Of a stretch of 64,000 bases of DNA, positions 1,361-56,010 are shown in pieces. Below the pieces are notes generated by a model. The model was not told where the DNA came from. It worked only from the letters and a program-made list of their open reading frames with translations, and ran no database searches. Each line of letters starts with the position of its first letter. Position 1 is the first letter of the stretch. A program made the position numbers and the translations under genes. The stretch is from a virus, in IMG/VR virus record IMGVR_UViG_3300021399_000004, positions 1-64,000 of that record. The stretch is one strand, 5' to 3'.

Positions 1361-2359
1361 TTAGCCGCCGCCTCCACTATTTCTATTATATCCATACTCT
1401 TGTGTTTTAAAGAAATCAATATAATATTTTTCTAACTCATTTAATTTATCTTTTTCACAATAAGTTATTATTTCTATTGTCCAATTCCAAATGCCGCTCT
1501 TTAACATTTCATGGTGAACTTTCTAATCAGCAATCGTAGTTATTCCTACGGCACTTTTATAATGGTCTGCGATTCGTTTCTTTACATTAGTGCTCTTTCC
1601 AATATATGCTTTTCCAGTATTTATATTTGTTAATTTATAAATTCCTGGTTCATCTTTTGCACCAATTCTTTTAAAAGTCTCATCAATATAAGGCTTTATA
1701 TATTCAGACCATACTAACTTACTTATAATATCAGGATGAGCGACTTTCTATGATACAGTTGTTAGTAAAAAATCTATATCTTCACGGTATTCTTCAGGAG
1801 TCTATACTGTATAAAAGAGTTTTGCTTGCTAATCTTTTTCATACTACTGCAATGGCGCAAGTAAACTTTGAAACTTTTGTTCTTGATATTCTACCTATTC
1901 TTTAATTTCATCAGCCTTATTTGTCATTTCTGACATGAAATCATCAAAAGCCGCTTCTAAATTTTTCTAATCATGTTCACACGATTCTTTAAACTTTAAT
2001 AATTCATTAGCATAAATAGCTTTTTTTGATTCAATCTCATCTTCCAATATTTCTAGACGTTTATTTTTTTCTTGTTCTAAGTCTTTAGTTAAATTTAATT
2101 GCTAAGTAAGCCATTCATTCTGAGCAACACTAATTTGTTCTTTTAAATTATTTAGTTCATTAGTTTTATTTACTATACTATCATTAAGACTACCACATTC
2201 CCATTTTATTTTATCTAATGCCCGTTGGTTAGTAGTAATTTCATTTTGAATGGTAGTAATTTGCTCAGTGTCAAGAGTTGTTTTCTTCTTTAACTAAAAA
2301 ACTAATATAATAATTATAAGAATTAAAATTCCTATGACAATATACATATACATCACCAT
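1361..2359 (-). CDS. GIY-YIG nuclease-domain protein with N-terminal TM helix and coiled coil (9 in-frame TAG)
   Basis: Hand translation gives MVMYMYIVIGILILIIIILVF..., then a long coiled coil, then GIYKLTNINTGKAYIGKSTNVKKRIADHY. The only interruptions are TAG. The track shows no ORF here. Confidence 0.6.
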
Positions 2360-2392
2360 CATTTCTTTTCTTATAATTATTATATCAGATTT

Positions 2393-16375: not shown

Positions 16376-16406
16376 TCATCTCACCTCCGATAAAGTGCAA
16401 CTGGGA

Positions 16407-17300
16407 TTACTCCCAGTTGTACTTATTGGCAGCAGGCTTCTCTGCCGGAGAAGCCTTATGAGAAGCATCAACCCTCAGTTGTTCAATCTTTGCCTTTCTT
16501 ACATTAAAAGCCTTCTTAATATCCATAGAATCATAGGCAAACTCTTCTTCCTTGCCGAAATCGTCGCCCTTAGTGATAATTAGCTCACGCACTGTCCGAG
16601 TAGTAACCTCAGGAATATCCTCACCCCAAGAACTCTGCTTACCAGATTCCTTTACTTCGGACGCAGTTACCCTTACTCTACCCTTAACAGTGATAGTATC
16701 ATTTACTTCCCAATTCTTCTCAATATATTCTACATTATCCGGGTCTTCAACGATAAACTCAAGAACATCTAGATTGCCACCATATTGCACAATACCACCC
16801 TTAATTACAAGACGACCGGTTGGATCACCATCACGATCCTCTTCAGGATGCATATCCATAATATATAGGTCAATCACAAATGTTGCAACATCATTGGTGC
16901 CGCCCTTGTTAATAAAAGATGTGTTAATCTGCCAACTATTAATAATCTGTCCAGTAGTTCTGGAAAGGAAATTATTTTCACGAATCGAAGCGCCATTAAT
17001 ACGCACAGTGTCCGCCTCATCAATACCAACTACTTGCGCAGACTTCATTTCCTTTAGAGCCTGAATCTGATCGTAACCAGGATTCAACTTATTCGCCAGC
17101 GTATACTTCGCGGCAAACATGCTAACAGGAATCTCACTGGTTTCCTCGCGTCCACCATAAGTCTGGGTTACTCGCACTGTAAGATTGGCACTCTCATAAA
17201 TACGTCCATCATTCAATGTACCGCTACGGAAGGTTACGTCTAGAAGCTTTCCAACAATATTAATCTTATTCATTGCTTGCATCATAATATCTTTGCTCAT
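16407..17300 (-). CDS. hypothetical protein, possible ssDNA-binding protein
   Basis: 297 aa with no TAG, in the replication module and driven by its own consensus promoter. The functional guess rests on context only. Confidence 0.3.
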   Translation of the reverse strand: MSKDIMMQAMNKINIVGKLLDVTFRSGTLNDGRIYESANLTVRVTQTYGGREETSEIPVSMFAAKYTLANKLNPGYDQIQALKEMKSAQVVGIDEADTVRINGASIRENNFLSRTTGQIINSWQINTSFINKGGTNDVATFVIDLYIMDMHPEEDRDGDPTGRLVIKGGIVQYGGNLDVLEFIVEDPDNVEYIEKNWEVNDTITVKGRVRVTASEVKESGKQSSWGEDIPEVTTRTVRELIITKGDDFGKEEEFAYDSMDIKKAFNVRKAKIEQLRVDASHKASPAEKPAANKYNWE

Positions 17301-17335
17301 ATTTATCTTTTCTCCTTTTTTATCTTTCTTTATTT

Positions 17336-17364
17336 ATTATATCTTATTTTTTATTAAAAGTCAA
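17336..17364 (-). promoter_or_regulatory. promoter TTGACT-N17-TATAAT
   Basis: attata at 17336-17341, agtcaa at 17359-17364. Follows terminator 17375-17399. Confidence 0.7.
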
Positions 17365-17374
17365 TTTATAAAAT

Positions 17375-17399
17375 GGGCAGTTCCATTTTGGAACTGCCC
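17375..17399 (-). terminator. intrinsic terminator hairpin
   Basis: 10-bp stem GGGCAGUUCC/GGAACUGCCC followed by AUUUUAUAAAUU on the minus strand. Confidence 0.65.
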
Positions 17400-17453
17400 C
17401 AATATACGCTTGCACGTATATAGAAACTGTTCCCACACTGGTGGGTCAGATAA

Positions 17454-17813
17454 TTACTCGGCTTCCTTCGCGGTCTTAGCAGCAGCGCGCTCGGCAGCTC
17501 TACGAGCCTTTTCCTCTTCCTTAGCAGCCTGCTTTGCGGCTTCCTCAGCAACGGGGTCATAAGTTAGACCAGCCTCAGTTAGAGTATGATATAGTACGTT
17601 ATGAGTGCGGGCCTTACGAGTCTCAGTTGCGGGAGAATCTTCTACAACCTCGGTACGAGTGGTAACAGCGTATCCCTTCTTTACTAGAGCATTCATGCTA
17701 CCTACTACAGAAGCTAGAGAAATGCCTAGCTCCTCAGCAAGCTCCTACTTGGAATAATCCTTACCATAGTTGTTCTTTAGAAAGTTTAGTACTAGCATAG
17801 AATTCTGTGTCAT
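17454..17813 (-). CDS. winged-helix DNA-binding protein with Ala/Lys/Glu-rich tail (1 in-frame TAG)
   Basis: Track ORF 17454..17696 extends through one TAG to the ATG at 17813. The HTH-like segment is ELAEELGISLASVVGSMNALVKKGY. Confidence 0.5.
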
Positions 17814-17933
17814 AATAATCAATCTCCTTTTGTTTTAAAAAATTTTATTATTTATATTAAAGCGGTAAGGAATATCCTTCTCACTTTATATACTTCTTTG
17901 TAAGATTTCTTTTTCTCTCTTTCTTACAGATAT

Positions 17934-17962
17934 ATTATACAACTTTTTTTGTTGAAAGTCAA
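17934..17962 (-). promoter_or_regulatory. promoter TTGACT-N17-TATAAT
   Basis: attata at 17934-17939, agtcaa at 17957-17962. Confidence 0.7.
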
Positions 17963-18270
17963 TTATTTGGTTCTTCCAAATATCTAACTTTTTTATTATG
18001 TTCTCGCGCATAGTTAATTTCTGAGCGAGTGCTTTCGCCAATATATCCGTTCACATTAATCACAAAAATTTCATCACTCATGTCAATTTTTGCTTTATGA
18101 ATTTCATCTAACATTATTTTCTGTTCTTGTGTTGGTTCTTTATCACTATGTCCAAATACACCAACACTAATTACAATATTCCCTTCTAGAGTCAAGCGGG
18201 ATTGCTACCGTAAAAATTCATCTTTAAATCGCGTGCTCCCGCAAAGAGTTATAACAGGATATTTACTCAT
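17959..18270 (-). CDS. hypothetical conserved phage protein (1 in-frame TAG)
   Basis: Extension to the ATG at 18270 gives MSKYPVITLCGSTRFKDEF..., a Rossmann-like N-terminus. Confidence 0.4.
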
Positions 18271-18649
18271 CTAAAAAGCACTCCTTCACGACGTTCTTTA
18301 GAGAAGTCTCATCGGCTCCTTCATTAATAACTCTATCTAATTTAGGAATCAGCATCATTTTATAACTGTCAACTACCTTTTGCTGAATATTAATACGGTC
18401 TTGCATATTTGAAGAAACAATCATTGCTCCCGCAAGAATCTTTAAATAATCTTCCTTCTTTAAAGAGTCAATGTTAAAATTTTCATCTGCAAGGCGGTCT
18501 GTCAATGAATTATAATCATCCCGCATTGTCTATGCAGTTTCATAGCCATGTTCATCGTTATTTTTCTTATCAACATCCATTACCTGCTCGGCAAGAATAG
18601 ATGTCATATTACAAATTTCTTTAAATAAAGAAATATACTAATTATTCAT
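18263..18649 (-). CDS. hypothetical protein (2 in-frame TAG)
   Basis: Track ORF 18263..18526 extends to an ATG at 18649 that overlaps the upstream stop. Confidence 0.4.
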
Positions 18650-20723
18650 ATTTTACTCCTCTTACCGCTCTACCGGTAATTTGATATTTATCATCGCCAA
18701 TCCAACGGGCTTCTTGTACATATTCATCCGCCGCTAATTTAATTGCTTTTACGCCCTTCGTTACTCGGCCAGTACATCCAATTGTTGAAATTGGATAGCA
18801 ATTATAATAGTTATTATTACTAAGAATGAAAACTTTATCATCCTCATCACTACTAGGCAGAACCATAATTAATTCGTCATCTTTATCTAACTTAATTATT
18901 GGAGTACCTTTTCGCGCGCGGACTGCAAATTCAGAGATTTCACTCCTTTTAATGTAGCCATTCTTGGTTACGCATGTAACTGTCTGGAAAGCATTAAATG
19001 TACGACTATCAATTAGTAAGAGCGGCTTCTCTGAACCGATGGGGAAAATATCTGTTAATTTAATATCTTTATCATACTTAATTTTATTAAGCATTTCAGT
19101 ATACATTTTCCCGCTGGAAGTAAATAAAAGTAAAGAATCAAGATTTACTGTAAAAATTTCAGTTTGCGCTTTTCCTCGCTTACCTCGATTTACATCTTTC
19201 TTCACAACTTTAATAGAACTTCCATTTTGAAGGACAATTACATCTTCTTCCTTTATTTCTTCTGGCTCTTCTTCGTCTCCAAGAATATTCTCAACTTTGG
19301 TTCTCCGAGCGTCACCAAATTTCTCGGATACTTCTTTTAATACTTTAATTAATTCCTCATCCAATGCAGTTGGGGTATTTAATAAGTAGCGAAGCCACTC
19401 GATTTTTCTACTAAGTTCCGCCGCCTCTTCTTCTAATTTTACAATATCAAGTTTTGTTAAACTTGATAACTTCATTGCAAGAATAGCTTTAGCTTGTTCT
19501 TCATTAAAATCATAGATAGAAATTAATTTTTCTTGTGCTTCTGATGGGCTATTAGAACTCCTAATAAGAGCAACAATTTCGTCTATAATAGAATAAGCTT
19601 TAATTAAGCCATCAACAACATTTTTTCTAGCGCAAGCCTTGTCTAAGTCAAATTGAATCATATTGCGCTTACACTGGCGAATATGCTCAATATAGGCATC
19701 ACAAGCTTCGCGCCATCCAAATACTTTTGGAAAACGTCCTTTATCAAGAAGAATCATATTGATTGAATAATGATTCTCAAGCGAAGTGTCATGATAAAGT
19801 TTAGCGATCATTTTATCGGGATTCTGCCCTTTAGAAAGATAGATACGAATATCTGCTTCTTTCTTTGTATGGTCGATAACTTTATCTATTCCATATTCTG
19901 GATTATCATTTACTAAAGCAGCAAGCTGATCTATTACCGTATTTGTAAATACACCATAAGGAAGTTCGGTGGCTTGAAGCATATTCTCTTTAGGAACAAA
20001 CTTAATATTCGCGCGCAAACGAATGGATTTACCTTTTCCTACTCTCAGGCTTTCTTTAACTTCTGAGGCATTAGTAATAGTGCTACCCGTAGCAAAATCC
20101 GGAGCACAATATATTTCATCATATGTTACAGAAGGATTCTGAATAATTTTAATAAGCGCATTATTAACTTCCCGAAGATTAAACTGAGGCACGGAGGTAG
20201 CCATTGCAACTGCGATACCTTGGCATCCATTTACAATATTCCAATACCCAATTGAAGGGAAAACAGATGGAATTTGTTCAGTGCTGTCATAATTATCATA
20301 CCATTCTGTAACCGCATTCTTTTTCAGGCCATCAAACATAAAATCTGCGACTTCGCCCGCCCTCATCTCAACATAACGAGCGGCCGCATGGCTATCAGGA
20401 GATGAAGGGTTCCCATAGCTTCCCTGAACATCTTCAAGAGGGTATCTTGCAGACCAAGGTCTAGCTACTCGGATAAGAGTATCATACATTGCCACATCGC
20501 CATGTACATATGATTGAGACATCGCGGCGGCAACGCTCTTCTGGGCTTTTTGGAACTTATCTTTATGAGTGAGCTTATTAGTGAACTGTGCATATAGACC
20601 CTGCCGCAGACCAATTTTAAGCATATCCCTAACATCTGGCAGTGACCGCTCTTGAGCTATAGAAGCTCCATACTTTAGAAATGCATCCTCAATGGTGCGT
20701 TGAAAGTCTACGTTTTTGATCAT
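18642..20723 (-). CDS. type II DNA topoisomerase, A (breakage-reunion) subunit
   Basis: 693 aa with no TAG. GyrA/ParC-like N-terminus with HAAARYVEMR (active-site Tyr region). Confidence 0.85.
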   Translation of the reverse strand: MIKNVDFQRTIEDAFLKYGASIAQERSLPDVRDMLKIGLRQGLYAQFTNKLTHKDKFQKAQKSVAAAMSQSYVHGDVAMYDTLIRVARPWSARYPLEDVQGSYGNPSSPDSHAAARYVEMRAGEVADFMFDGLKKNAVTEWYDNYDSTEQIPSVFPSIGYWNIVNGCQGIAVAMATSVPQFNLREVNNALIKIIQNPSVTYDEIYCAPDFATGSTITNASEVKESLRVGKGKSIRLRANIKFVPKENMLQATELPYGVFTNTVIDQLAALVNDNPEYGIDKVIDHTKKEADIRIYLSKGQNPDKMIAKLYHDTSLENHYSINMILLDKGRFPKVFGWREACDAYIEHIRQCKRNMIQFDLDKACARKNVVDGLIKAYSIIDEIVALIRSSNSPSEAQEKLISIYDFNEEQAKAILAMKLSSLTKLDIVKLEEEAAELSRKIEWLRYLLNTPTALDEELIKVLKEVSEKFGDARRTKVENILGDEEEPEEIKEEDVIVLQNGSSIKVVKKDVNRGKRGKAQTEIFTVNLDSLLLFTSSGKMYTEMLNKIKYDKDIKLTDIFPIGSEKPLLLIDSRTFNAFQTVTCVTKNGYIKRSEISEFAVRARKGTPIIKLDKDDELIMVLPSSDEDDKVFILSNNNYYNCYPISTIGCTGRVTKGVKAIKLAADEYVQEARWIGDDKYQITGRAVRGVKYE

Positions 20724-28141: not shown

Positions 28142-28390
28142 TTATTCTAATAGAGAATTTAACTCTTCTGCAAAAGTTGACTTCTTTCTTTCAAGAGGAG
28201 GAGTAGTTCTAAAATACGTATTATAAATATAACTTCTTGCTGTCGTAAAAACTGCAGCTGCATTTTTTGCTGGATGGTTTTGCATATACTATTTCATTTT
28301 TTCTTTTTCATCTATTGAAAGATTTTTAATGAAAGCCTCAAGATAATCACGATTAAGATCATTAATAGATTTTATTTCTTTATTTTCCAT
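28142..28390 (-). CDS. hypothetical protein (1 in-frame TAG)
   Basis: ATG at 28390 to TAA at 28142 is open if TAG is sense. Length is divisible by 3. Confidence 0.35.
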
Positions 28391-29060
28391 TTAAACACCC
28401 CTCCTCCTTTTGTTTACGTGTAAAGAAATAGAAAAATGGTGTATCCAATAGAGCTAAAATGAATTTAATACAATATTGTCCAATTATAAGACCAATTAAT
28501 TCATTTCCTGACATTTTTAAACCGATACCAAAACCGATACCAATAAAAATTATAGTATCAATAATTTGACTAGTCATAGTACTGCCATTGTTCCATAACC
28601 ATCTCCATTTATTATAATTTTGAGTACCCCATTTTTTATTCGCCCAATCTTTAATTTTATGAAAAATAAATACATCCCATGTCTATGAAGCGCCGTATGC
28701 GATTAGGCTTCCTAATGTAAACCAGCCCAAATTATTTAATGAAGTATATGTATCGCTACCTACGAACCACGCTTTAAAAATAATTGGAGTTAAATAAATT
28801 AAAATTGTGCACATACACTATGCAATAAAACCGTATAAAACAGCTAAGTTTGCCTATTTTTTCCCCCAAATTTGACTAATAATATCAGTTGATAAGAAAG
28901 TAATTGCATATGCCAATACTGCTGCAGGAGCAAGTAACTAAATATTACCGAGATAAAAATTAGTAAGAATCATACCATTACTACTTATAATATTTGCCGT
29001 TAATAATGAAGTAACAAATATTACAATTAATATTTGTAAATTATATTCTGTTTTTTTCAT
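28380..29060 (-). CDS. VUT/YhhQ-family queuosine-precursor (7-deazaguanine) transporter (4 in-frame TAG)
   Basis: Readthrough translation gives a polytopic membrane protein with family motifs YAITFLSTDIISQIWG and AYGAS-TAG-TWDVFIF (compare E. coli YhhQ GQILDVHVF). Its start overlaps the stop of the upstream transglycosylase-like gene by ATGA. Confidence 0.65.
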
Positions 29061-30205
29061 AAAATATTTGCCTCCTTGCTGTTATGTGCTATATAAATAC
29101 GAGAAAACTCACACCATACTTTTAAATCATTTAAAATATTAACATTACTATCATAAGAAACTGTTCCTGATTTAACAATAATCTAATTATTCTCCAATAA
29201 GCAATGCTTACAGCGACGTGCATGATTCCAGCTGGTGGTATCTATTGTATCACATGGCATAATAAAATTATTTAATAAATCTAATAGCGCGAAACCCAAT
29301 CCGTGCACTTTAGTGCCATATGAATGTGCTTCGTCACATAACTCTGTAATTAATTGTACAGCTTCAGAAGGTAGTATTTCTCGGGAAGCTATACCACCGA
29401 TTGCAATCATATCATAATTTTTACACATATTTGTCCATTCTTCTCTTCCACGAGTTTTATGCCAAACTGGAATAGGCACAATTCCAGTCTACTAATATAG
29501 GTATTCTCGTATTCGTTTAACAGCTTCTAAACCAATCATATGATCTAGATCTAATTCAAAAAAATGCTATATTTTAAAATGTTTAATAAAATTAATATAT
29601 CTTTCAACATATTCTAATAAATTAATATCTTTTTTAGGATTATTCATATATGAAAATGCACCACTGTCAAGAAAAAATTCTATATGGTTTGTATGAATCC
29701 ATTGAAAATAATCTTCAGTTAATTTAGTAAAACTTTTTGGAAAATCTAATAAACTATCTAACATATATAAAGGAGTAATTGGTTGCTCTATAGCAAAACT
29801 TTTATTATGAGATAGGCCACCAATAAAAATTTTTGTAGGTGGATATTTAGCAGATGAAATTAAAGATGCTCTGCTATTCTTATCTAACTTCGGGATACTT
29901 TCATTTTTAGGTATTTCATATGTAGATAATATTTTTTCTTTTTCGTGTGGTAATAATATATCTTCTATCACAGTATTTTCAACAGCTGATAACTAGTCTT
30001 GTTCTTTTTGTTGTAATGTATTTGGAGCTGCCATCTAAGGAAAAGACAATAAATAATTAATTAAACGATCATAGCAAGATTGACAAATATCCTAATTAAC
30101 AAATATAATTTCATTATTATTTTTTTTTGGCATTTTAATAATTCGATCATTATTAGTTTCTTGCTAGCAAAAATCACAATAATGAATTTCTAATTGCTTA
30201 ATCAT
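29057..30205 (-). CDS. DpdA/TGT-like guanine transglycosylase with N-terminal zinc ribbon (8 in-frame TAG, including a tandem TAG-TAG at 29489-29494)
   Basis: Track fragments 29183..29479 and 29567..29971 are joined in one frame by TAGs. TGT-superfamily-like motifs: FFLDSGAFSY, MIAIGGIA, VHGLGF and CDTIDTTSW. Confidence 0.55.
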
Positions 30206-30218
30206 GCTTTTAACCTCA

Positions 30219-31481
30219 TTAATTATTATATTTTTTTTCTTGTAAAATAAGATTTAATATGATACCAATAATCATAGCTAGTGCTGTTGTCCCAATACTG
30301 ACAATTCCAAAGTCACAAACAGCGCCAGAAACACCTAATGTTAGCACTGTTGCTATAATAATAATATTCTTATTATCCTCAAGATCCACTTGATTCTTAA
30401 TGGTGCGAATACCGCTTAGAGTAATATATCCGTAGAGGATGGTCGCGCATCCGCCTAAAATAAATGAAGGCATAGAGACTAGGATAGCCTGAAGCGGCCC
30501 GAAAATAGAAGCAATTCCCATAATAACTGCGGCAAGAGTAATTACATACTTAGAACAAACCTTGCTAAAGCCGGTCGTTCCTACGCTTTCGCCATAGGAA
30601 GTATTGGGAATATTGGATAGAAAAATTCCTGCCGCGGAGGCAAGCCCGTCACCAATTAGAGTGGAGCCTAAACCAGGTGTATGTGTAAGATCTGTATTGA
30701 TAACAGCACTCAAAGCCTTGTGGTCTGAAATATGTTCTGCGATACAAACAAAGCTAAGAGGTACAAAGAGTAGCAAAATCTGCGGCAGCAAGCCCCAATT
30801 AAAGTTAGCAAAATCATAATGTAAGAATGCGAAATCAGGAATCTAAATAATATGCATATCATTAAATGCTGCAAAATTCACTAGTGGAACGCCGAAAACT
30901 GTTAGGATACAAGAAATGCCATATACAATAAGCATAGATACTAGGAAAGGTAAGTTCCGTATAAATCCTTTACCATAGTGTGAAATACATGCGGCAATAA
31001 CCATAGTAAGAACACCCATACCAAAACCAAGTAGGCTGTACTGACCATTTACTTGGAAATAAGTTGGTAAGTATGTAGCCAAATTCAAACCAATAACTGC
31101 TACAACTGGGCCTATGACCGCCGCAGGCAGAAGTTTATCAAGCCAAGTAGTGCCGCTGCGTTTAATAAGCAAGCCAACGCCGCAATAAATTAGTGCAATA
31201 ATAATACCACCAATTGCAACTGCTGGATAGCCACCAAGCCCTATTCCGCCAATTACTGCGGCCACGAACGCACCAGATGAACTGATAAACATAGGGCTCT
31301 ATCCTTTTGTACAGAGCTGATAAATTAATGTTCCGACACAAGCTCCTAACATTGCTGGAGCGATAGGAACATTACAAATCTATGGAATTAAAACTGTGGC
31401 TACAAAGCAAGCCATGACTTGCTATAGAGCGCATGTAATTAGTCGCTTAAGCGGCATTTTGTCATTTATATTATATAACAT
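30219..31481 (-). CDS. NCS2-family nucleobase (uracil/xanthine-type) permease (4 in-frame TAG)
   Basis: Track fragments 30219..30791 and 30843..31292 plus an N-terminal extension form a 420-aa polytopic protein that aligns along UraA. Matching segments: AL-TAG-QVMACFVATVLIP, SSSGAF, IAEHISDHKA and NTSYGESVGTTGFSKV. Confidence 0.75.
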
Positions 31482-31493
31482 ACACAAAACTCC

Positions 31494-32000
31494 TTATAGT
31501 TCATCTTCAATGTCTATTTTATTAAAATTTAAATCATCTAAATTAGGGTTATATATAATTATATATTGCGACGGCCCGTCAAATAAACTGCCTTTTATAA
31601 TAAGATTCTCATCTAACCATTGAAAACTGGTTGGACAGAAGCCATCGCCCCATTCATATGCTTCATCATCTGGATATACATAATCTTTAAATTGATTTTT
31701 AGTTATATTATAAATAGATATACATTGATATGAACCTGATGTAATAATAAATTTTTGGTTATTCTGTTCCACGTAAACTGGCTGTGGAATCAAAGAATAA
31801 TTTCTATTATATGTAAATAAAATTTGTTTATTAATTTTATCATAAATAGAAACTTGAAACTTGTCCCAATACTTCATTATATTATGATATGGCGCCTTAT
31901 AGCGAGTAGCCATTAATACATAATCATTTGTATTTATGATTGGGATTTCTTCTGTTTTATATTTTTGATAATAATTTTCAATTTGAGTCGGGTGATTCAT
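31494..32000 (-). CDS. hypothetical protein
   Basis: 168-aa track ORF. Confidence 0.5.
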   Translation of the reverse strand: MNHPTQIENYYQKYKTEEIPIINTNDYVLMATRYKAPYHNIMKYWDKFQVSIYDKINKQILFTYNRNYSLIPQPVYVEQNNQKFIITSGSYQCISIYNITKNQFKDYVYPDDEAYEWGDGFCPTSFQWLDENLIIKGSLFDGPSQYIIIYNPNLDDLNFNKIDIEDEL

Positions 32001-32126
32001 TTTAATTACTCCTTTAAATTACCCTTCTTCATTACCATACAAATCTTTTAATATTGGTATAATTTCATCGAATGAATTATGTAGCATATGATCTTCCGTT
32101 GCGTATAAAACCATCCCATATAACAT

Positions 32127-32669
32127 CTAATTAATGCTAAAACTGCGGCGCCAATCCTTTTCATTTAAATGGTTAGTGCGAATATCAAAGTAATGGGCAA
32201 AATTTTTCTTTTCTGCTTGCGTCTGTACTAAGCTCAGAACTTCTCGGAAAATAGAATTTGCAATTATGTCTGCTTTTTCTTCTGGGCTAATTGACTTATC
32301 ATTTAATCTTTCTTTTTCTTTCTTGCTTGTTTCTTCTATTAAAGTTAAAATTTTATCTGCCATATACTTCCATCCATACAGCACTCCCATCTCGCACATA
32401 GTGCCAATGGCGCTCTGCTCTGGACATAACACAGTATAATCACTATTCCAAAGCCGTTCAATATCTGCTTCGCAGATTTTTTCTGCAAGGTGATTATTCT
32501 CTTCTTCTGTCATATTAGATTTATCATTAATGGACTTATTTTGTACTGGGCTGTATACTTCTCCAGGGATACATGCTTCTTTAAATTTATCATATTCTTC
32601 TTGGCGCGCGAGGTTAGATCCATGTGTCATAATATCGCCGCCGAGGTATCCTAATGGCTGTTTAGACAT
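32127..32669 (-). CDS. nucleoside 2-deoxyribosyltransferase-like protein
   Basis: 180 aa. N-terminal YLGGDIMTHGS and mid-protein GTMCEMGVLYG loosely resemble the NDT fold signature. This is a weak call. Confidence 0.35.
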   Translation of the reverse strand: MSKQPLGYLGGDIMTHGSNLARQEEYDKFKEACIPGEVYSPVQNKSINDKSNMTEEENNHLAEKICEADIERLWNSDYTVLCPEQSAIGTMCEMGVLYGWKYMADKILTLIEETSKKEKERLNDKSISPEEKADIIANSIFREVLSLVQTQAEKKNFAHYFDIRTNHLNEKDWRRSFSIN

Positions 32670-33160: not shown

Positions 33161-33694
33161 TTAACACCAATTGATTCCTTCAACTTCATTGCCCCATACG
33201 TCCCAGCCTTCATGGTAACTTCGCGCGAAAAGCTCAATTCTTGGGGCATAACTAACTCGTTCAATCATTTGCCGCATAGTTTCTGGCTTTGTGCTATGGT
33301 CTCTTTTTTCTTCAAAAAATCCGGTTACTCCTTGACAGCGCTTACCATTTTCATCTACCTTATAAGGAAGAACTTTTTTAGTGCGAGCAAATAAACAATG
33401 CTCGGTTAATCCTCTATAATATTGACCTAAGCCTTGCTTTTCTTTCATCCACGTAATCATAGTAACATACTGGAAACCCCACGCTTTAATTACTTGGAGT
33501 GCATCGGGCAAAAAATTATTTGTTGTCCATAAATATAAATGGCATCCTTCTTCTGGATTATAAAGTGTTTGGACAGGTAAAGCACAAATATCTTTGGTTG
33601 TCATTAATGGATAATGCGCATCGGCGCCACGTTTAATTTGGCCGCCACCTTTTTCCATCCAAGGTGGATCTGCGTAAATTGTTTTATAAAACAT
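33161..33694 (-). CDS. MT-A70-family N6-adenine DNA methyltransferase
   Basis: 177 aa with the N-terminal IYADPPW catalytic motif. Confidence 0.8.
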   Translation of the reverse strand: MFYKTIYADPPWMEKGGGQIKRGADAHYPLMTTKDICALPVQTLYNPEEGCHLYLWTTNNFLPDALQVIKAWGFQYVTMITWMKEKQGLGQYYRGLTEHCLFARTKKVLPYKVDENGKRCQGVTGFFEEKRDHSTKPETMRQMIERVSYAPRIELFARSYHEGWDVWGNEVEGINWC

Positions 33695-34120: not shown

Positions 34121-35107
34121 TTAATCACCTTTTTGATATATATAAATTAACTCAGAATTATCATTTTCGTCACCATTTCTTTTAGTGCGATTGCGTTGCG
34201 TTAATAATTCTGTCCCAATAAAATGAAATCCATTATTTTCAATAATTTCTTTTGTATCCGTTGCTATGCTATATTCTTTTAAATTTTTTATATTAATAGC
34301 AAAATATCCATGCGTAATTAAATATTTATATATATTTTTAATTGTCGGACTCATATATGAAGTTAGCCACTCATTATAAGTCATTCCATCTTTATATGAT
34401 TGATTACCAATTTTATAATTTTCTAAGTTAAAATACGGAGGGGAGCTAAAAGCTAGTCCCATTTTATTTTCCCATTCTGGAATAAACTCTTCACTACCAT
34501 GAGCTCGTATATCTACTTCTGATTTATTATTAATAATAGTTTTCCAATCATTTGTTAATTCATTTAATTTATTAACTAATAAATAATTTGGTTCTGTACC
34601 ATAATAATTAATATTTTTTCGAAGCGCACTCATTAAGCGCACTCCCCAACCACAACTAAAGTCATAATAATTATTATTTATATTATATTTTGATAATATA
34701 TTATTAGAGGCTTTGATGGGAAACTGAGTTGGAAATTGAGCATAAGATTTACCACCAAGTCTAAGTGCAGTCTCAATATTAATGATTAACGGATTTTCTG
34801 GTGGATAAAAGCTTGTATTGCTTAAAACTTTAGATTTAAATATACCTAATAATTCTTTTGACTCCAATACTTCAGCTAATGACCATCGAGCCTCTGAGGA
34901 CTAAACCTAAGCCATTAATTCTTTAAAATAATACTAATTAATTTTATTACATCTTACACCAGTACCTGCAATCTTTTTCATCTATTCATATACTTCTTTT
35001 AATGCGGGCTTTGCATAACATTCTGCCTATATCTATTGACGTTCCTCTTCAGAAATTGGCATAGTATGTTTTGTTTCAATAGTTTTACCTTTATATGATA
35101 CTTTCAT
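34121..35107 (-). CDS. DNA methyltransferase (SPPY type, N4-C or N6-A; 5 in-frame TAG)
   Basis: The track ORF starts at a TTG that is internal. Readthrough of 5 TAGs reaches the ATG at 35107. Catalytic motif is LAFSSPPYFN, with the SAM-site-like FSCGWG. Confidence 0.7.
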
Positions 35108-35199: not shown

Positions 35200-36441
35200 T
35201 TAAATTGGAGGCCTCATTAAATCACACATTTGTGCAACGCTTCCTCGCTCAGATTTTAATAATTTAACCGCTCCAAATAATGGCTGTCCAGAAAGGTGCT
35301 GCAACATAGATTTTATACCGTTATTTTTTTCAAAACGGTGATTATCAATCTAAGCAACGTCTCCGCAAAAAATTAATTCACTACTTTCTTCAATACGACT
35401 CATTAACAATGTTACTAATTTATCATTCATATTTTCACATTCATCACAAATTACTATTGTGTTTTTAATGGATCTTCCACGAATGTGTGACAGAGGGAAG
35501 ATTTCAATAATTCCATCAAGAATTAATTGATTAAGCATGTCTTGCCCACCTAAATGATCTGCGATAGGCCCTCCCCAGATAGACATTTTATCTGTTATAT
35601 TACCTGGTAGATAACCTATATCATTTGTATCGGCAACAATAATATTATTACGCACAAATAATAATTTTGCGAAGCGTCCTTTATAAACCTATTCAAGAGC
35701 ATATGTTAAAGCCATTAGAGTTTTTCCGCCGCCCCAAGCGGAAGTTAATAATTTTACTTTGACATCTTGATTTTGTAATAAATCAAAAGCCATTTTCTAT
35801 TCAATATTCCTAGGACGTAAAACCTCATCAAGATAAGGATTTTTTATTTCTTTATATCTTAAATTACGATATTCTTTCCCGTTCCAGACCAATATGTCTT
35901 TTAAATTGTTATCAACAAAAATTTCTGCAAATTCATTTACCTTGCAATTTAAAATATTCATTTTTTTATCACTGTATAACATATTTAGTTGATCTTCAGT
36001 GGGATAATGTTTACTCCAGCCGCAATATTCTTCTTTTTCCTATTCTTCCTAATCTCCGAAGAAGTCTGCTGTAATATGAGACATTTGTGTTGCGAAAAGA
36101 TATTGTGCGCCATCACTGGTTATAAAATGTACTGATTCACAACTATTGCGGCCGAGCCATTCTGCTTCTGCCAATATTAAATGATCATTAGTTTCAGTAA
36201 GGAAATCATATTTTTCAATAATCTTTTTTAAGGCTTTCTATGAAACATGCTGATACATTATATCTTGTTTATTAATAATTTCCCGCACTGCTACACGCGC
36301 CTAATATTTAATTTGTTCATTTTTATTAGACTGCTTAATGTTCTCTAATTCAGTAAGAACTAAGGGGCTTACATAAACAGTACCATATTTATGCAAGCCC
36401 CCATTTAGTATAGCAGAAGTATCTAAAAAATGGATCACCAT
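35200..36441 (-). CDS. PIN-domain plus PhoH-like ATPase (YlaK/PhoH2 type; 7 in-frame TAG)
   Basis: Track fragments 35350..35655 and 35797..35982 lie in one frame from the ATG at 36441 to the TAA at 35200. N-terminal PIN-like FLDTSAIL...LTELENIK, Walker A SAWGGGKT, DECEN, and GDVA-TAG-IDNH matching the family GDxxQID motif. Confidence 0.75.
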
Positions 36442-50639: not shown

Positions 50640-50668
50640 ATTATATCAAAATTTTTATTGCAAGTCAA
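50640..50668 (-). promoter_or_regulatory. promoter TTGACT-N17-TATAAT
   Basis: attata at 50640-50645, agtcaa at 50663-50668. Confidence 0.7.
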
Positions 50669-51117
50669 CTTCTTTGCCATTCAAAAATTTCATAATTATG
50701 TTCTTGAAACCATCTATGGATTATTGTTCTTTCACTACATTTCTTTTCTGGTTTTTCGTAAACCATTAAAGCAAAATCTACACTATCTAACCCCTCTCCA
50801 GCAGCAATTTTATCCGACATATCTTGTAATTTATCAATAAAAGCATGAAAATTAATTTTACATAATTGCTTATAATATACTCTTAGAAATTGACAATCTT
50901 CTGGATGAGGAGGCTCACAGCATCCATTACATAAGTGATTACATGCTGGGCCAGGAATAAGTGGCGGAATATTCAAACCAATAATAACTCCACGGGCATC
51001 TTTCCCCTACGTTTCAGGCGTCCCAAAATACTTTGGCGGCCAGACCGCAGTTGATAATGGTACTAAATTTTTAGGGAAAAAGCGCACCTAATAGAAATAG
51101 GATGTATAAATCTTCAT
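50665..51117 (-). CDS. hypothetical protein (2 in-frame TAG)
   Basis: Track ORF 50665..50976 extends through two TAGs to the ATG at 51117 (MKIYTSYFY-TAG-VRFF...). Coupled by ATGA to the upstream ORF. Confidence 0.45.
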
Positions 51118-51753: not shown

Positions 51754-51768
51754 TATTTTTAAAATAAA

Positions 51769-51853
51769 CAGCCCGCTTGGGAGTCGAACCCAATCTGTCG
51801 CTTCAGAGGCTGTGGTTTTAGAGACCACCCGTGCAGCCGCACACCTACGGGCT
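51769..51853 (-). tRNA. suppressor tRNA, anticodon CUA (reads UAG), class-II architecture
   Basis: Acceptor AGCCCGU/GCGGGCU, anticodon stem GUGGU/ACCAC with loop CUCUAAA, an 18-nt variable region containing a UCUG/CAGA stem, T arm UUGGG-UUCGACU-CCCAA, discriminator G. D region is GCGGCUGCACGG. Confidence 0.8.
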
Positions 51854-51886
51854 ATATAAGTGAGGTTTCCCTCACTTTCTATAATA

Positions 51887-53602: not shown

Positions 53603-55315
53603 TTAATAGTAGAAATAATATTGTTCTGGCAAATTTTTATTGTCATTTAATTCTCGTACAAAGCGTTTAATATTTGGTCTTGGAATGTATTGCGATAACT
53701 TTTTAATTCGTCTACTAAAGAATATTGATTGCTAATTTTCATTCTCTCGGCTATTTTCATCTGCATATTTCTTATAGCTTTGTAGATAAAATCGTCTTAT
53801 ATCTTTCCAATATTGCTCTAAAAATTCAGGATGGTTTTTAACACAACGAAGAAAGTAATTATACAAATCAATTAAGAAAATATTCATTTTTTCTATTATA
53901 ATACTAGTGTCTACTTTTGCTTTTTCGCATAAGTTAATACAGTAAATACCATTATCTACAATGCCTGGCAAAGCTGTATATAAAAAATTTTTATTATCCT
54001 TATATGTTAATGAATTTTTATTTACTACAGTTTTATATATTGGCAAATCATAATGCCGAATATGATATGTCTATTCTACTCTATTGTAGTCATCAATAAT
54101 AGCATAGCAAGTCAAATTTATACCACAGTCTTCTGCCGCAAAAGAACCAACACCTTGATTATATGGTAAAATATTATAAACTTCTAAGAACTCTCTACGA
54201 TATACTTTACCGGGTGTAGATGGTTCATATGCACTTTGTACTATATTATCTGCGCCGTTAATCCAACTCCATTCATAAATGTCCATAACTCTATTATTGT
54301 CTAATTCATCTTTTACAGCTAGTAAACAATATTTAGATAAAATAATATCGCCGCAATCTACAAAAGTTAAATATGTACCGTGTGTATTTTGCATGCCGAT
54401 GCGTCTGGCATTGCCGGGCCCCTAATTCTTTTCTAATTTAATCAACTATATTAATGGAAACTATTTAATTATATTAGTATAATCAACTGATGAAGCGTCA
54501 TCAATTACTACAATATGTAACCACTCATATTCTGGATAATAAACAGATTTTAAAGTACGTATTAATCCTTTTTCATCATTATAACTAGGTATAATAATAT
54601 CTAAATCTATCTTATCCGATTGATTATATATTATTTTATTATTAGGGATAGACATATATTTATTAAAAATAGGATATTTCTACCATTCATGGTTCCCTGC
54701 AAAATGATTTATTTTTCTACTTTTTGCTTTCTAAAAATCAGTAGAATCATTCATATTATAGTCAGGTGGTAAATTTAAAATATAACCTTGACATAATTTA
54801 TTTAAAGCATTTTGCTCTGGAAAAATTTCATAATGATTATTAATATAATTAATTAGTTCATCATCTTTTTTATCATCTCGTAATTTTTTTAGATTCATTA
54901 ACATAACGCCGCAGTTAATATCTAAAAACATTTCAGTACAATTAGAAGGCTAAGACGAAGCGGCAATGTAATAATCACTAATATCTATATCCCATAATTC
55001 TGAAATATTTTCATTTACAATTGTATCAACATCTAATGACAAAACTTTATCTAAGTCCGGGAATATTTTTCCTAAAGCAACTCGTATTAAGGCCATATAA
55101 GTAAATTCACTTTTAAAATTAGGCCCATGCTTATCAAAATAAGTCTAATTACTTACATTTAATGTTTTTGTTTTTGGCGGTAATTCATATGGAAATACGT
55201 CATCTTCAATTAGAAAATAAATCTATTCAACATTTGAATGAATAAGTAATGATTTTGCTGCACCAATCATATATTTGTAAAGGTTTCTGGTGCCTGTATA
55301 TACCGCTGTCCTCAT
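53603..55315 (-). CDS. fused family-8 / family-2 glycosyltransferase (about 10 in-frame TAG)
   Basis: Four track fragments (53732..54046, 54071..54394, 54461..54655, 54731..54931) plus the N-terminus share one frame, and every junction is TAG. GT8 motifs LSLDVDTIV and NCGVMLMNLKKLR. GT2 motifs IIIPSYNDE, VVIDDASS and GPGNARRIG. If the TAG at 53732 terminates, the end is 53732. Confidence 0.55.
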
Positions 55316-56010
55316 AATATTTCCTCCCATTTCAAATTGATATAATATCGTACAATGGGTTCTACAAAGAAATAATCACGAATACCAGCATAATGATAAA
55401 TTTTTCTTTTATTAGGATTATAATTCATAAATAATGGATGAGAATTATATTCTGTTGGTAATTCTAGAATATGATTCTTATATACCTTATTAAGAGTATC
55501 CTATTCGGCGTACTCTTCTCTATAATGATTTAATCTAAAAATCATTTTTTCATCCATTTTATCTTCACGAATTTTTTTTAAATTACATAATAATACTCCG
55601 CCGTTTACATATAATCCATTTTTATTAAATTCTGGTGTATCTCTTACGCCAGCAATATAATAATTTGATATATCAATATCCCAAAGTTCATCTATATTTT
55701 CAGTAACAATTGTATCAATATCTAAAGATAGAATCTTATCTAACTCTGGGAATATTTTAGAATAGACAGAGCGGATAAGAACCATATAGCCACCCCATCC
55801 ATCATACCAATTCATGCAAGTTTCTTTCTTAAACCATTGCTAATTACTGATATTAATACACTATACTTTATCTGGTAGTTCATAAGGGAAAATATCATCT
55901 TCAATTAATAAAAATATCTAATCAATATGAGAGTTCATTAGTAATGATTTTATAGCAGGTATCATTTTATAATACACATTTCGTGTTCCACTATATGCCG
56001 CTACTTTCAT
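55312..56010 (-). CDS. family-8 glycosyltransferase (4 in-frame TAG)
   Basis: ATG at 56010 to TGA at 55312. Contains LSLDIDTIV (DxD) and NGGVLLCNLKKIRE. Confidence 0.6.

Follow-up and report, generated by a model that had tools for sequence, protein, structure and literature searches.

A DpdA-like transglycosylase with a predicted queuosine-precursor importer, and a separate candidate nucleobase-salvage pair, in a TAG-recoded phage

Introduction

The transglycosylase DpdA of phage 9g suffices by itself to place dPreQ0 in plasmid DNA in Escherichia coli (PMC6884629). The same survey (Hutinet 2019) described phages that encode DpdA only (group 3), proposed that they rely on host preQ0 or on uptake, and noted that some phages encode the transporter YhhQ, which was uncorrelated with any phage group (PMC6884629). 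DpdA-only phages, proposed precursor uptake and phage-borne YhhQ have therefore been on record since 2019, and Fusobacterium phage phiFN37 (OR492271) is already annotated with DpdA and YhhQ as a pair. Here, a locus of three minus-strand genes (28380-31481) encoding an NCS2 permease, a DpdA-like transglycosylase and a YhhQ-like transporter is analyzed in the first 64 kb of IMG/VR record IMGVR_UViG_3300021399_000004. This stretch, referred to below as the window, belongs to a genome of probably 120-190 kb. A preliminary description of the same DNA had grouped the three genes into one cassette, while the comparisons presented here favor two modules, in which the permease is paired with a nucleoside deoxyribosyltransferase-like (NDT-like) protein and the transglycosylase with the transporter.

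Like the DpdA1 systems of phage 9g and other Queuovirinae (PMC6884629), the window encodes a homologous transglycosylase that carries the corresponding motifs, His196 included, and that is located in a replication module; most members of its DpdA clade also share the dpdA, queC, queD, queE, folE layout of those phages. Unlike them, the window has no preQ0 genes, a translationally coupled YhhQ in their place, an extra N-terminal Cys4 extension of ~125 residues on the transglycosylase, and TAG codons whose reading depends on suppression. The DpdA-only phages resemble the window in having DpdA without biosynthesis genes, but in the clade studied here YhhQ sits beside dpdA in strict alternation with the de novo genes, in contrast to the survey of 2019 (PMC6884629). 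Among named phages, phiFN37 gives the best match to the DpdA-like protein (34% identity) and shares the DpdA-YhhQ pairing, its annotated order being ParB-like, queuine tRNA-ribosyltransferase, hypothetical, and queuosine precursor transporter. It differs in its ~85-kb genome with an integrase, in the ParB-like gene upstream and the open reading frame (ORF) between DpdA and YhhQ, and in having no TAG recoding, NCS2/NDT module or N-terminal extension. In the literature searched, no report was found of the strict alternation of YhhQ with de novo genes, of DpdA-YhhQ translational coupling, a Cys4 extension on DpdA or a TAG-recoded setting, or of a conserved pair of NDT-like protein and NCS2.

Results

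A DpdA-like protein coupled to a predicted queuosine-precursor transporter

When only TAA and TGA are taken as stops, the minus strand of the locus contains three clean genes, whose coordinates, frames and TAG counts (4, 8 and 4) exactly reproduce those first reported (Table 1). A standard-code reading was dropped, as it splits all three genes into short ORF fragments; the probability that a 382-codon frame would lack TAA and TGA by chance is ~2e-10. A Shine-Dalgarno sequence precedes the start codon of each gene, that of YhhQ being AAGGAGG. The ATGA by which the DpdA stop overlaps the YhhQ start, also reported earlier, is present, and the identical 4-nt overlap is found in the related contig L001.

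The middle protein is composed of a four-cysteine, zinc-ribbon-like part (residues ~9-51), a linker and a barrel core (~125-370) resembling that of tRNA-guanine transglycosylase (TGT), and it matches PHROG 887, 'queuine tRNA-ribosyltransferase', at 6.8e-34. When a family profile built from an alignment of 55 sequences was compared with phage 9g DpdA in hhalign, the two were aligned over 209 columns (probability 98.8%, E = 6.6e-17, ~20% identity), with the motifs LDSGAFS, PxPxxH, GG, KVHG[LF]G and DS[ST]SW in one-to-one correspondence. Residues D180, S181, D219, D221, H249, G270, H301-G304 and D322 are invariant in the 55-member family. They cover the catalytic and substrate positions expected of DpdA1, namely the Asp of DSG(G/A)F, a second Asp in the DS(T/S)SW motif near the 'FD' of TGT, and His196. 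D180, D322 and H301 align with D72, D215 and H196 of the 9g protein, and the D89 region of E. coli TGT has a DSGG motif of the same pattern as the D180 motif. His196 of DpdA1 is missing from DpdA2 (PMC6884629). AlphaFold2 (AF2) was applied to a 56%-identical proxy, P0001, rather than to the window protein, and yielded a model with a predicted local distance difference test (pLDDT) score of 83. The best PDB matches of this proxy model in Foldseek are TGT 7a3x (1.6e-4), DpdA 7ui4 (2.2e-4) and ArcTGT 1j2b, while the top matches in BFVD are phage queuine tRNA-ribosyltransferases, with E-values down to 3e-15. PDB sequence searches with the DpdA-like protein gave no match, and no precomputed Pfam domain was present in 120 homologs, among the matches listed.

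Because the PHROG, profile-profile and fold evidence agree, the middle protein is still best regarded as a DpdA1-type member of the TGT superfamily, despite the failure of the Pfam TGT model (see Discussion). The preliminary description's DpdA/TGT-like identity is thereby upheld, with profile searches placing 29057-30205 in the TGT/DpdA superfamily. DNA is its presumed target, and the family's genomic link to a 7-deazaguanine supply is seen in 70/80 viral loci, where preQ0 synthesis genes or YhhQ are found beside dpdA. The N-terminal CxxC...CxxC part corresponds to PHROG 2999 and is confined to a subclade of 345-382 residues, the ~250-residue family members being without it; this zinc-ribbon-like domain, modeled at low confidence, may serve DNA binding or specificity.

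The transporter matches Pfam Vut_1 over the full model (3.1e-40, 138.4 bits against a gathering score of 27.2) as well as NCBIfam TIGR00697, 'queuosine precursor transporter' (107 bits against a cut-off of 50.95), both of which bear out its earlier assignment to the YhhQ/VUT family. It is 23% identical to E. coli YhhQ and scores below the narrower E. coli-type model PRK11212 (31.5 bits against 252). On this family membership, it is predicted to transport a 7-deazaguanine base, that is, a queuosine precursor. The 82-residue ORF that overlaps the YhhQ stop is recovered by tblastn at the same place after YhhQ in L001 (68% identity), L004 (51%) and L003 (49%); it trails YhhQ in all DpdA-bearing lineage members examined, namely these three and the fragment L002, which makes it a possible third part of the module formed by DpdA and YhhQ.

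Among ~55 ORFs of at least 100 residues scanned for gene content in the window, none encodes QueC, QueD, QueE, FolE or QueF, so that the absence of queC, queD, queE and folE noted earlier is confirmed for the window. One of the two methyltransferases encoded nearby was considered as the preQ1 methylase DpdM (DUF3109, CxxxCxxCC motif), which neither fits. The 150-residue ORF at 50665-51117 contains CNHLCNGCC, like the DpdM motif, and was treated as a coincidence, with no DUF3109 or other Pfam match; phage phAss-1 supplies the one named homolog, a hypothetical protein at 35% identity.

YhhQ alternates with preQ0 synthesis genes beside dpdA

Using the DpdA family profile, 80 viral loci were retrieved from IMG/VR, and the neighbors of dpdA were classed by local tblastn. 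At least two of FolE, QueD and QueE are present beside dpdA in 52/80 loci, 50 of which also have QueC, and YhhQ is found in 0/52. YhhQ is beside dpdA in 18/80 loci (11 with YhhQ alone and 7 with QueC in addition), and FolE, QueD or QueE is found in 0/18; three loci have QueC only, and seven have neither YhhQ nor Que genes. Thus no locus has both the importer and the de novo genes (Fisher p = 4e-11), and the same holds after dereplication at 90% DpdA identity, where 20 of 49 clusters are de novo, 20 have YhhQ and 0 have both (p = 5e-7). This mutual exclusion supports the view that the YhhQ importer substitutes for the preQ0 pathway at the same position beside dpdA, and it is currently the strongest argument for YhhQ as the supplier of DpdA. 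It also strengthens the earlier proposal that the phage salvages a base from the medium. On a rough neighbor-joining tree, the DpdAs linked to YhhQ are split into five or more separate runs interspersed with de novo-linked ones, which suggests that the importer has repeatedly replaced the pathway.

A class of loci with DpdA, QueC and YhhQ, in which FolE, QueD and QueE are absent, comprises L003 (11075-11977), L040, L049, L050, L054, L060, L063 and L076. These loci suggest either that a precursor preceding preQ0, such as 7-carboxy-7-deazaguanine (CDG), is imported or that a QueC-like enzyme acts in another role. In L003, QueC carries a C-terminal extension of ~90 residues that is HAD-phosphatase-like by eye.

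The NCS2 permease is linked to an NDT-like gene

In the window and L001 the genes are arranged as NDT-x-NCS2 followed by DpdA-YhhQ, whereas in L003 and L004 the order is DpdA-(QueC)-YhhQ, x, and then NDT-x-NCS2. The NDT-like gene lies upstream of NCS2 in L001, L003, L004 and L090-L094, and in L090/L091 and L092/L093 the block with NDT and NCS2 is syntenic, DpdA and YhhQ being absent within 10 kb. By tblastn, neither NCS2 nor the NDT-like gene was found in any of the other 80 DpdA loci. Conservation within the lineage follows the same division, with identities of 69-94% for NCS2 and 72-90% for the NDT-like protein versus only 38-56% for DpdA. Since NCS2 and NDT occur without DpdA, are permuted relative to it in L003 and L004 and are missing from the 80 DpdA loci, NCS2 and the NDT-like protein are best described, on synteny and conservation, as a lineage-core pair, and DpdA, YhhQ and the 82-residue ORF as a separate accessory module. 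The three-gene cassette of the preliminary description is therefore not retained, the partner of the permease being the NDT-like gene.

The permease covers positions 3-384 of the 389-position Pfam model Xan_ur_permease (1.1e-52, 179.5 bits against a gathering score of 27). In a phmmer search of the PDB its best match is UraA at 178 bits, the purine permease UapA scoring 23 bits, and its full length aligns with E. coli UraA at 34% identity. Glu241 and Glu290 are essential uracil ligands of UraA, and His245 serves proton coupling (PMC5539350). Glu241, Gly289 and Glu290 are conserved in the phage protein as E249, G297 and E298, and the UraA-like signature GESVGTTGFSK, pointed out earlier in a full-length NCS2 protein, is present at residues 297-307. 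Unlike in UraA, the position of Phe73 is occupied by Gly in 120/120 clade members, the histidine and asparagine of the site are also changed (see Discussion), and an NDT-like partner is present. The protein also scores below both NCBIfam uracil-permease cut-offs (NF007995, 241 bits versus 477; TIGR00801, 204.5 versus 291.8). Because its binding site deviates from that of UraA, uracil is not assured as the substrate. Among deposited phages, nucleobase permeases are indeed unusual, as remarked earlier, but this clade is abundant in metagenomes, where more than 120 clusters are found at 69-94% identity.

The NDT superfamily comprises transferases and N-glycosidases. The NDT-like protein matches PHROG 1817 at 7.8e-37 and PF05014 at 26.5 bits, just under the gathering score of 28.8; a PDB sequence search gave no match. 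Its AF2 model is of low confidence (pLDDT 65.5), and the top Foldseek matches, to NDTs, BcmB and DNPH1, are non-significant (E >= 0.1). Taken together, these results moderately support the family assignment. The 168-residue ORF between the NDT-like gene and NCS2 has no match in Pfam or PHROGs and none by tblastn in related loci.

Contig L003 additionally encodes, at 16377-19497, a second, different NCS2 protein (446 residues) immediately followed by an adenine deaminase (Amidohydro_1 and Adenine_deam_C), which looks like an additional purine-salvage module.

TAG is read as glutamine and is concentrated in a subset of genes

When window TAG positions were compared with three related contigs, CAA or CAG was found in 23/54 non-TAG cases, the next most frequent codon being GAA with 8. 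At the four TAG positions of NCS2, 113-119 of 120 clade members have Gln, and the NCS2 genes of the three relatives checked have no TAG at all. Since relatives thus carry CAA/CAG or Gln at these positions, TAG-free NCS2 genes included, reading of TAG as Gln, as in genetic code 15, is supported by non-circular evidence. The window has a single CUA suppressor tRNA, identified with ARAGORN within a cluster of 16 tRNAs. Its 87 nt include a long variable arm, as in class II tRNAs (Ser, Leu, Tyr), and it adjoins two tRNA-Ser(GCU) genes, though the codon comparison points to Gln.

The use of TAG is bimodal among window genes. Thirty-one genes have zero TAG, and the 1319-residue polymerase has it at 0/59 Gln positions (p = 2e-5), while NCS2, DpdA, YhhQ and the next ORF have it at 33-50% of Gln positions (17/41; p = 2e-4). 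With this TAG load, full-length NCS2, DpdA and YhhQ products require suppression. This much of the earlier proposal, that the three genes are made only when suppression is active, stands, but such gating is not conserved for NCS2, whose relatives' genes are TAG-free. The most TAG-rich genes of the window, with TAG at 48% and 80% of Gln positions, are two glycosyltransferase genes inside the tRNA cluster, a GT8-GT2 fusion and a GT8 gene. Beside nrdD/nrdG is the gene of a possible homing endonuclease, a GIY-YIG domain protein whose N-terminus forms a long coiled coil.

A probable transcription unit and its surroundings

The three genes appear to belong to one minus-strand transcription unit of ~7.3 kb, from ~35.1 to 27.9 kb, in the order methyltransferase, ORF, MT-A70, ORF, NDT-like, ORF, NCS2, DpdA, YhhQ and two small ORFs (Table 1). 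The unit as a whole is probable; its proposed boundaries are drawn from strong terminator-like hairpins and two bracketing promoter-like sites that each score 11/12, these being consensus matches only in a window whose overall promoter count is not above chance. In the direction of transcription NCS2 precedes DpdA and YhhQ, where the preliminary description had the permease following the pair, and the methyltransferases and NDT-like gene it placed downstream are upstream. Its NDT-like boundary at 32127 corresponds to truncation of a standard-code ORF at a TAG. The first gene of the unit gave no match in a Pfam search, and its translation holds SPPY and FSCGWG motifs. Directly upstream of the unit is a PIN-PhoH fusion; the position of PhoH is kept in all lineage loci examined (the window, L001, L003, L004 and L090-L094), where it belongs to a conserved block of RNase H, dNMP kinase, ligase, ClpP and PhoH.

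Table 1. Features of the window, grouped by the proposed transcription unit and its surroundings (coordinates refer to the 64-kb window)
Feature	Position	Strand	Properties
Terminator-like hairpin	35196-35174	-	After PhoH; 10-bp stem, 8 GC pairs, T-run
Promoter-like site	35164-35136	-	TTGACT, 17-nt spacer, TATAAT, with TG; proposed unit start
Probable amino-methyltransferase	34121-35107	-	328 aa, 6 TAG; first gene of the unit; PHROG 498 'DNA methyltransferase' 4.8e-7
MT-A70 family DNA (adenine) methyltransferase	33161-33694	-	Pfam MT-A70 3.3e-25; PHROG 359 4.7e-58
NDT-like	32019-32669	-	216 aa, 1 TAG; PF05014-like
ORF	31494-32000	-	168 aa; between NDT-like gene and NCS2
NCS2	30219-31481	-	420 aa, 4 TAG
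DpdA-like	29057-30205	-	382 aa, 8 TAG
YhhQ/Vut_1	28380-29060	-	226 aa, 4 TAG
ORF	28142-28390	-	82 aa; overlaps YhhQ stop; no Pfam or PHROG family
Terminator-like hairpin	27874-27851	-	Proposed unit end
Promoter-like site	27846-27818	-	Next to the preceding hairpin
PIN-PhoH fusion	35200-36441	-	7 TAG
ORF	50665-51117	-	150 aa
Suppressor tRNA	51768-51854	-	Anticodon CUA; ARAGORN
GT8-GT2 fusion	53603-55330	-	In tRNA cluster
GT8	55312-56010	-	In tRNA cluster
GIY-YIG domain protein	1361-2362	-	9 TAG

The genes of the window mark it as the replication and nucleotide-metabolism region of a large phage; among their products are dUTPase, anaerobic NrdD and its activase, a RecJ-like protein, a DnaB-like helicase, gyrase A and B, ClpP, DNA ligase, deoxynucleoside monophosphate (dNMP) kinase, RNase H, RNA ligase and the polymerase mentioned above, which is 36% identical to SPbeta YorL. 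Related contigs span 90-190 kb, and a megablast search of the region against deposited phages gave zero nucleotide matches. The lineage, marked by the conserved pair of NDT-like protein and permease, is an abundant and hitherto undescribed group of gut phages. It resembles phAss-1/'Phassvirus' (PMC10607447), ~136-kb human-gut phages with TAG read as Gln, a suppressor and many tRNAs, and predicted Clostridia hosts. Unlike a close relative, however, phAss-1 has no nucleotide similarity to the window and no DpdA or NCS2 match in its record, these genes go unmentioned in PMC10607447, and a close relationship was rejected on finding the match to the 150-residue ORF as the only, small, shared one.

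The host of the window phage is probably among gut Clostridia, toward which the hints are weak. In 185,579 species genomes, the permease clade was confined to two short contigs that had been binned into Clostridia metagenome-assembled genomes, L095 (Candidatus Scatovivens sp.) and L096 (Clostridia bacterium), and neither a cellular donor of the permease nor a firm host was identified in this set. Because L095 holds further homologs of window phage genes, the two contigs are taken to be phage fragments and, as such, give a weak host hint.

Discussion

The reading favored here, to which a probability of roughly 0.62 is assigned, is that of a salvage-fed DpdA/YhhQ DNA-modification module beside a separate NDT/NCS2 salvage module. 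YhhQ would enter the host membrane and import an environmental 7-deazaguanine base, most likely preQ0 or preQ1, for which DpdA would exchange guanines in replicated phage DNA, and the swapped base would shield that DNA from host restriction. The importer would thereby occupy the place that the FolE, QueD, QueE and QueC genes have beside dpdA in most related phages. The NDT-like protein and NCS2, functionally independent of DpdA, would most likely import a pyrimidine-type nucleobase and feed deoxynucleoside or nucleotide salvage for phage DNA synthesis.

Several results weigh against this reading. The DpdA-like protein has no match to Pfam TGT (PF01702) at E <= 0.01, reaches a probability of only 2.5% when aligned by hhalign to E. 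coli TGT alone, and finds its PDB matches in Foldseek at modest E-values (~1e-4) and a template modeling (TM) score of ~0.45, with the model being that of the 56%-identical proxy. Its fold, and the exchange of bases in DNA proposed for it, are those of the bacterial Dpd system (DpdA/DpdB/DpdC; 7ui4), but it scores 18.6 bits against the cut-off of 200 of the NCBIfam equivalog for bacterial DpdA (NF041059); none of the Pfam families seen in the window points to a DpdB- or DpdC-like partner, though no model of either protein was searched. The position of UraA His245 is Asp253 in the permease, with His254 adjacent, and 'EN' has become 'ES', in 120/120 clade members, and the NDT-like assignment is weak outside PHROGs. 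The co-occurrence statistics ignore phylogeny, the neighbor-joining tree is rough and unbootstrapped, and the relatives with QueC and YhhQ hint at import of a base other than preQ0 in some cases. As the window spans 64 kb and the genome at least 120 kb, preQ0 genes could lie outside it. Finally, no riboswitch, for preQ1 or otherwise, was detected in 27-37 kb at E <= 1, nor any in 11 YhhQ-linked loci at gathering scores.

That NCS2, DpdA and YhhQ form one unit after all, with both permeases supplying the base for DpdA and NCS2 taking up a deazapurine or another unusual base, is improbable. While the three genes adjoin one another in the same direction and with little spacing in the window and L001, and the changed site of NCS2, with two departures from UraA throughout the clade, would allow a non-uracil substrate, the occurrence of NCS2 and NDT-like genes without DpdA and YhhQ in L090-L093, the separation and permutation of the modules in L003 and L004 and the 0/80 count in other DpdA loci all argue against it, as do retention of both uracil-binding Glu residues and the far higher score of NCS2 to UraA than to the purine permease. 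Little credence is likewise given to NCS2 and the NDT-like protein as a second route of base supply, by which a non-canonical base (a modified pyrimidine or deazapurine) could be imported, placed onto deoxyribose and passed through the phage dNMP kinase into replication. This idea arises from the invariant non-UraA site (Glu...Asp-His in transmembrane helix 8, Glu-Ser in helix 10) together with the obligate NDT-superfamily partner; were it true, phages that also have DpdA and YhhQ would have DNA modified by two independent import-dependent routes.

Two further explanations, each considered unlikely, concern the DpdA-YhhQ module itself. The proteins could act on tRNA, boosting or restoring queuosine-type G34 modification in host or phage tRNAs to tune translation, as the fold is common to tRNA-guanine transglycosylases, the phage encodes tRNA-Asn(GUU) and tRNA-Asp(GUC), which belong to the classes modified by TGT, and a boost to Q has been suggested for phages that carry pathway genes and lack DpdA (Hutinet 2019, PMC6884629). 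Yet the family profile aligns far better with the DNA-modifying 9g DpdA than with E. coli TGT, its core is ~250 residues as opposed to 375 for E. coli TGT, with nothing aligned C-terminal to the TGT barrel in hhalign, the 52 relatives with de novo genes share the preQ0-gene arrangement of phages with known modified DNA, and the unit also encodes two DNA methyltransferases. It is similarly doubtful that DpdA draws on preQ0 from the host, or from phage genes outside the window, with YhhQ as an unrelated auxiliary or mere supplement. The genome is seen only in part, 76 DpdA-only phages may rely on host preQ0 (Hutinet 2019, PMC6884629), and the seven loci with neither YhhQ nor Que genes nearby would be compatible with such a source, but the perfect exclusivity of YhhQ and de novo genes at the same dpdA-adjacent position and the ATGA coupling of DpdA to YhhQ, kept in L001, argue against it.

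If the favored reading of a salvage-fed DpdA/YhhQ module is true, this phage would owe its protection from host restriction to a metabolite taken up from its gut surroundings, and not to one made by the phage or its host, and phage fitness would be coupled to the queuosine precursors pooled in the community. The alternation of importer and biosynthesis genes provides a clean comparative argument on the role of phage YhhQ, which was left open by Hutinet 2019 (PMC6884629), while the pair of NDT-like protein and permease is a candidate auxiliary function for nucleobase salvage.

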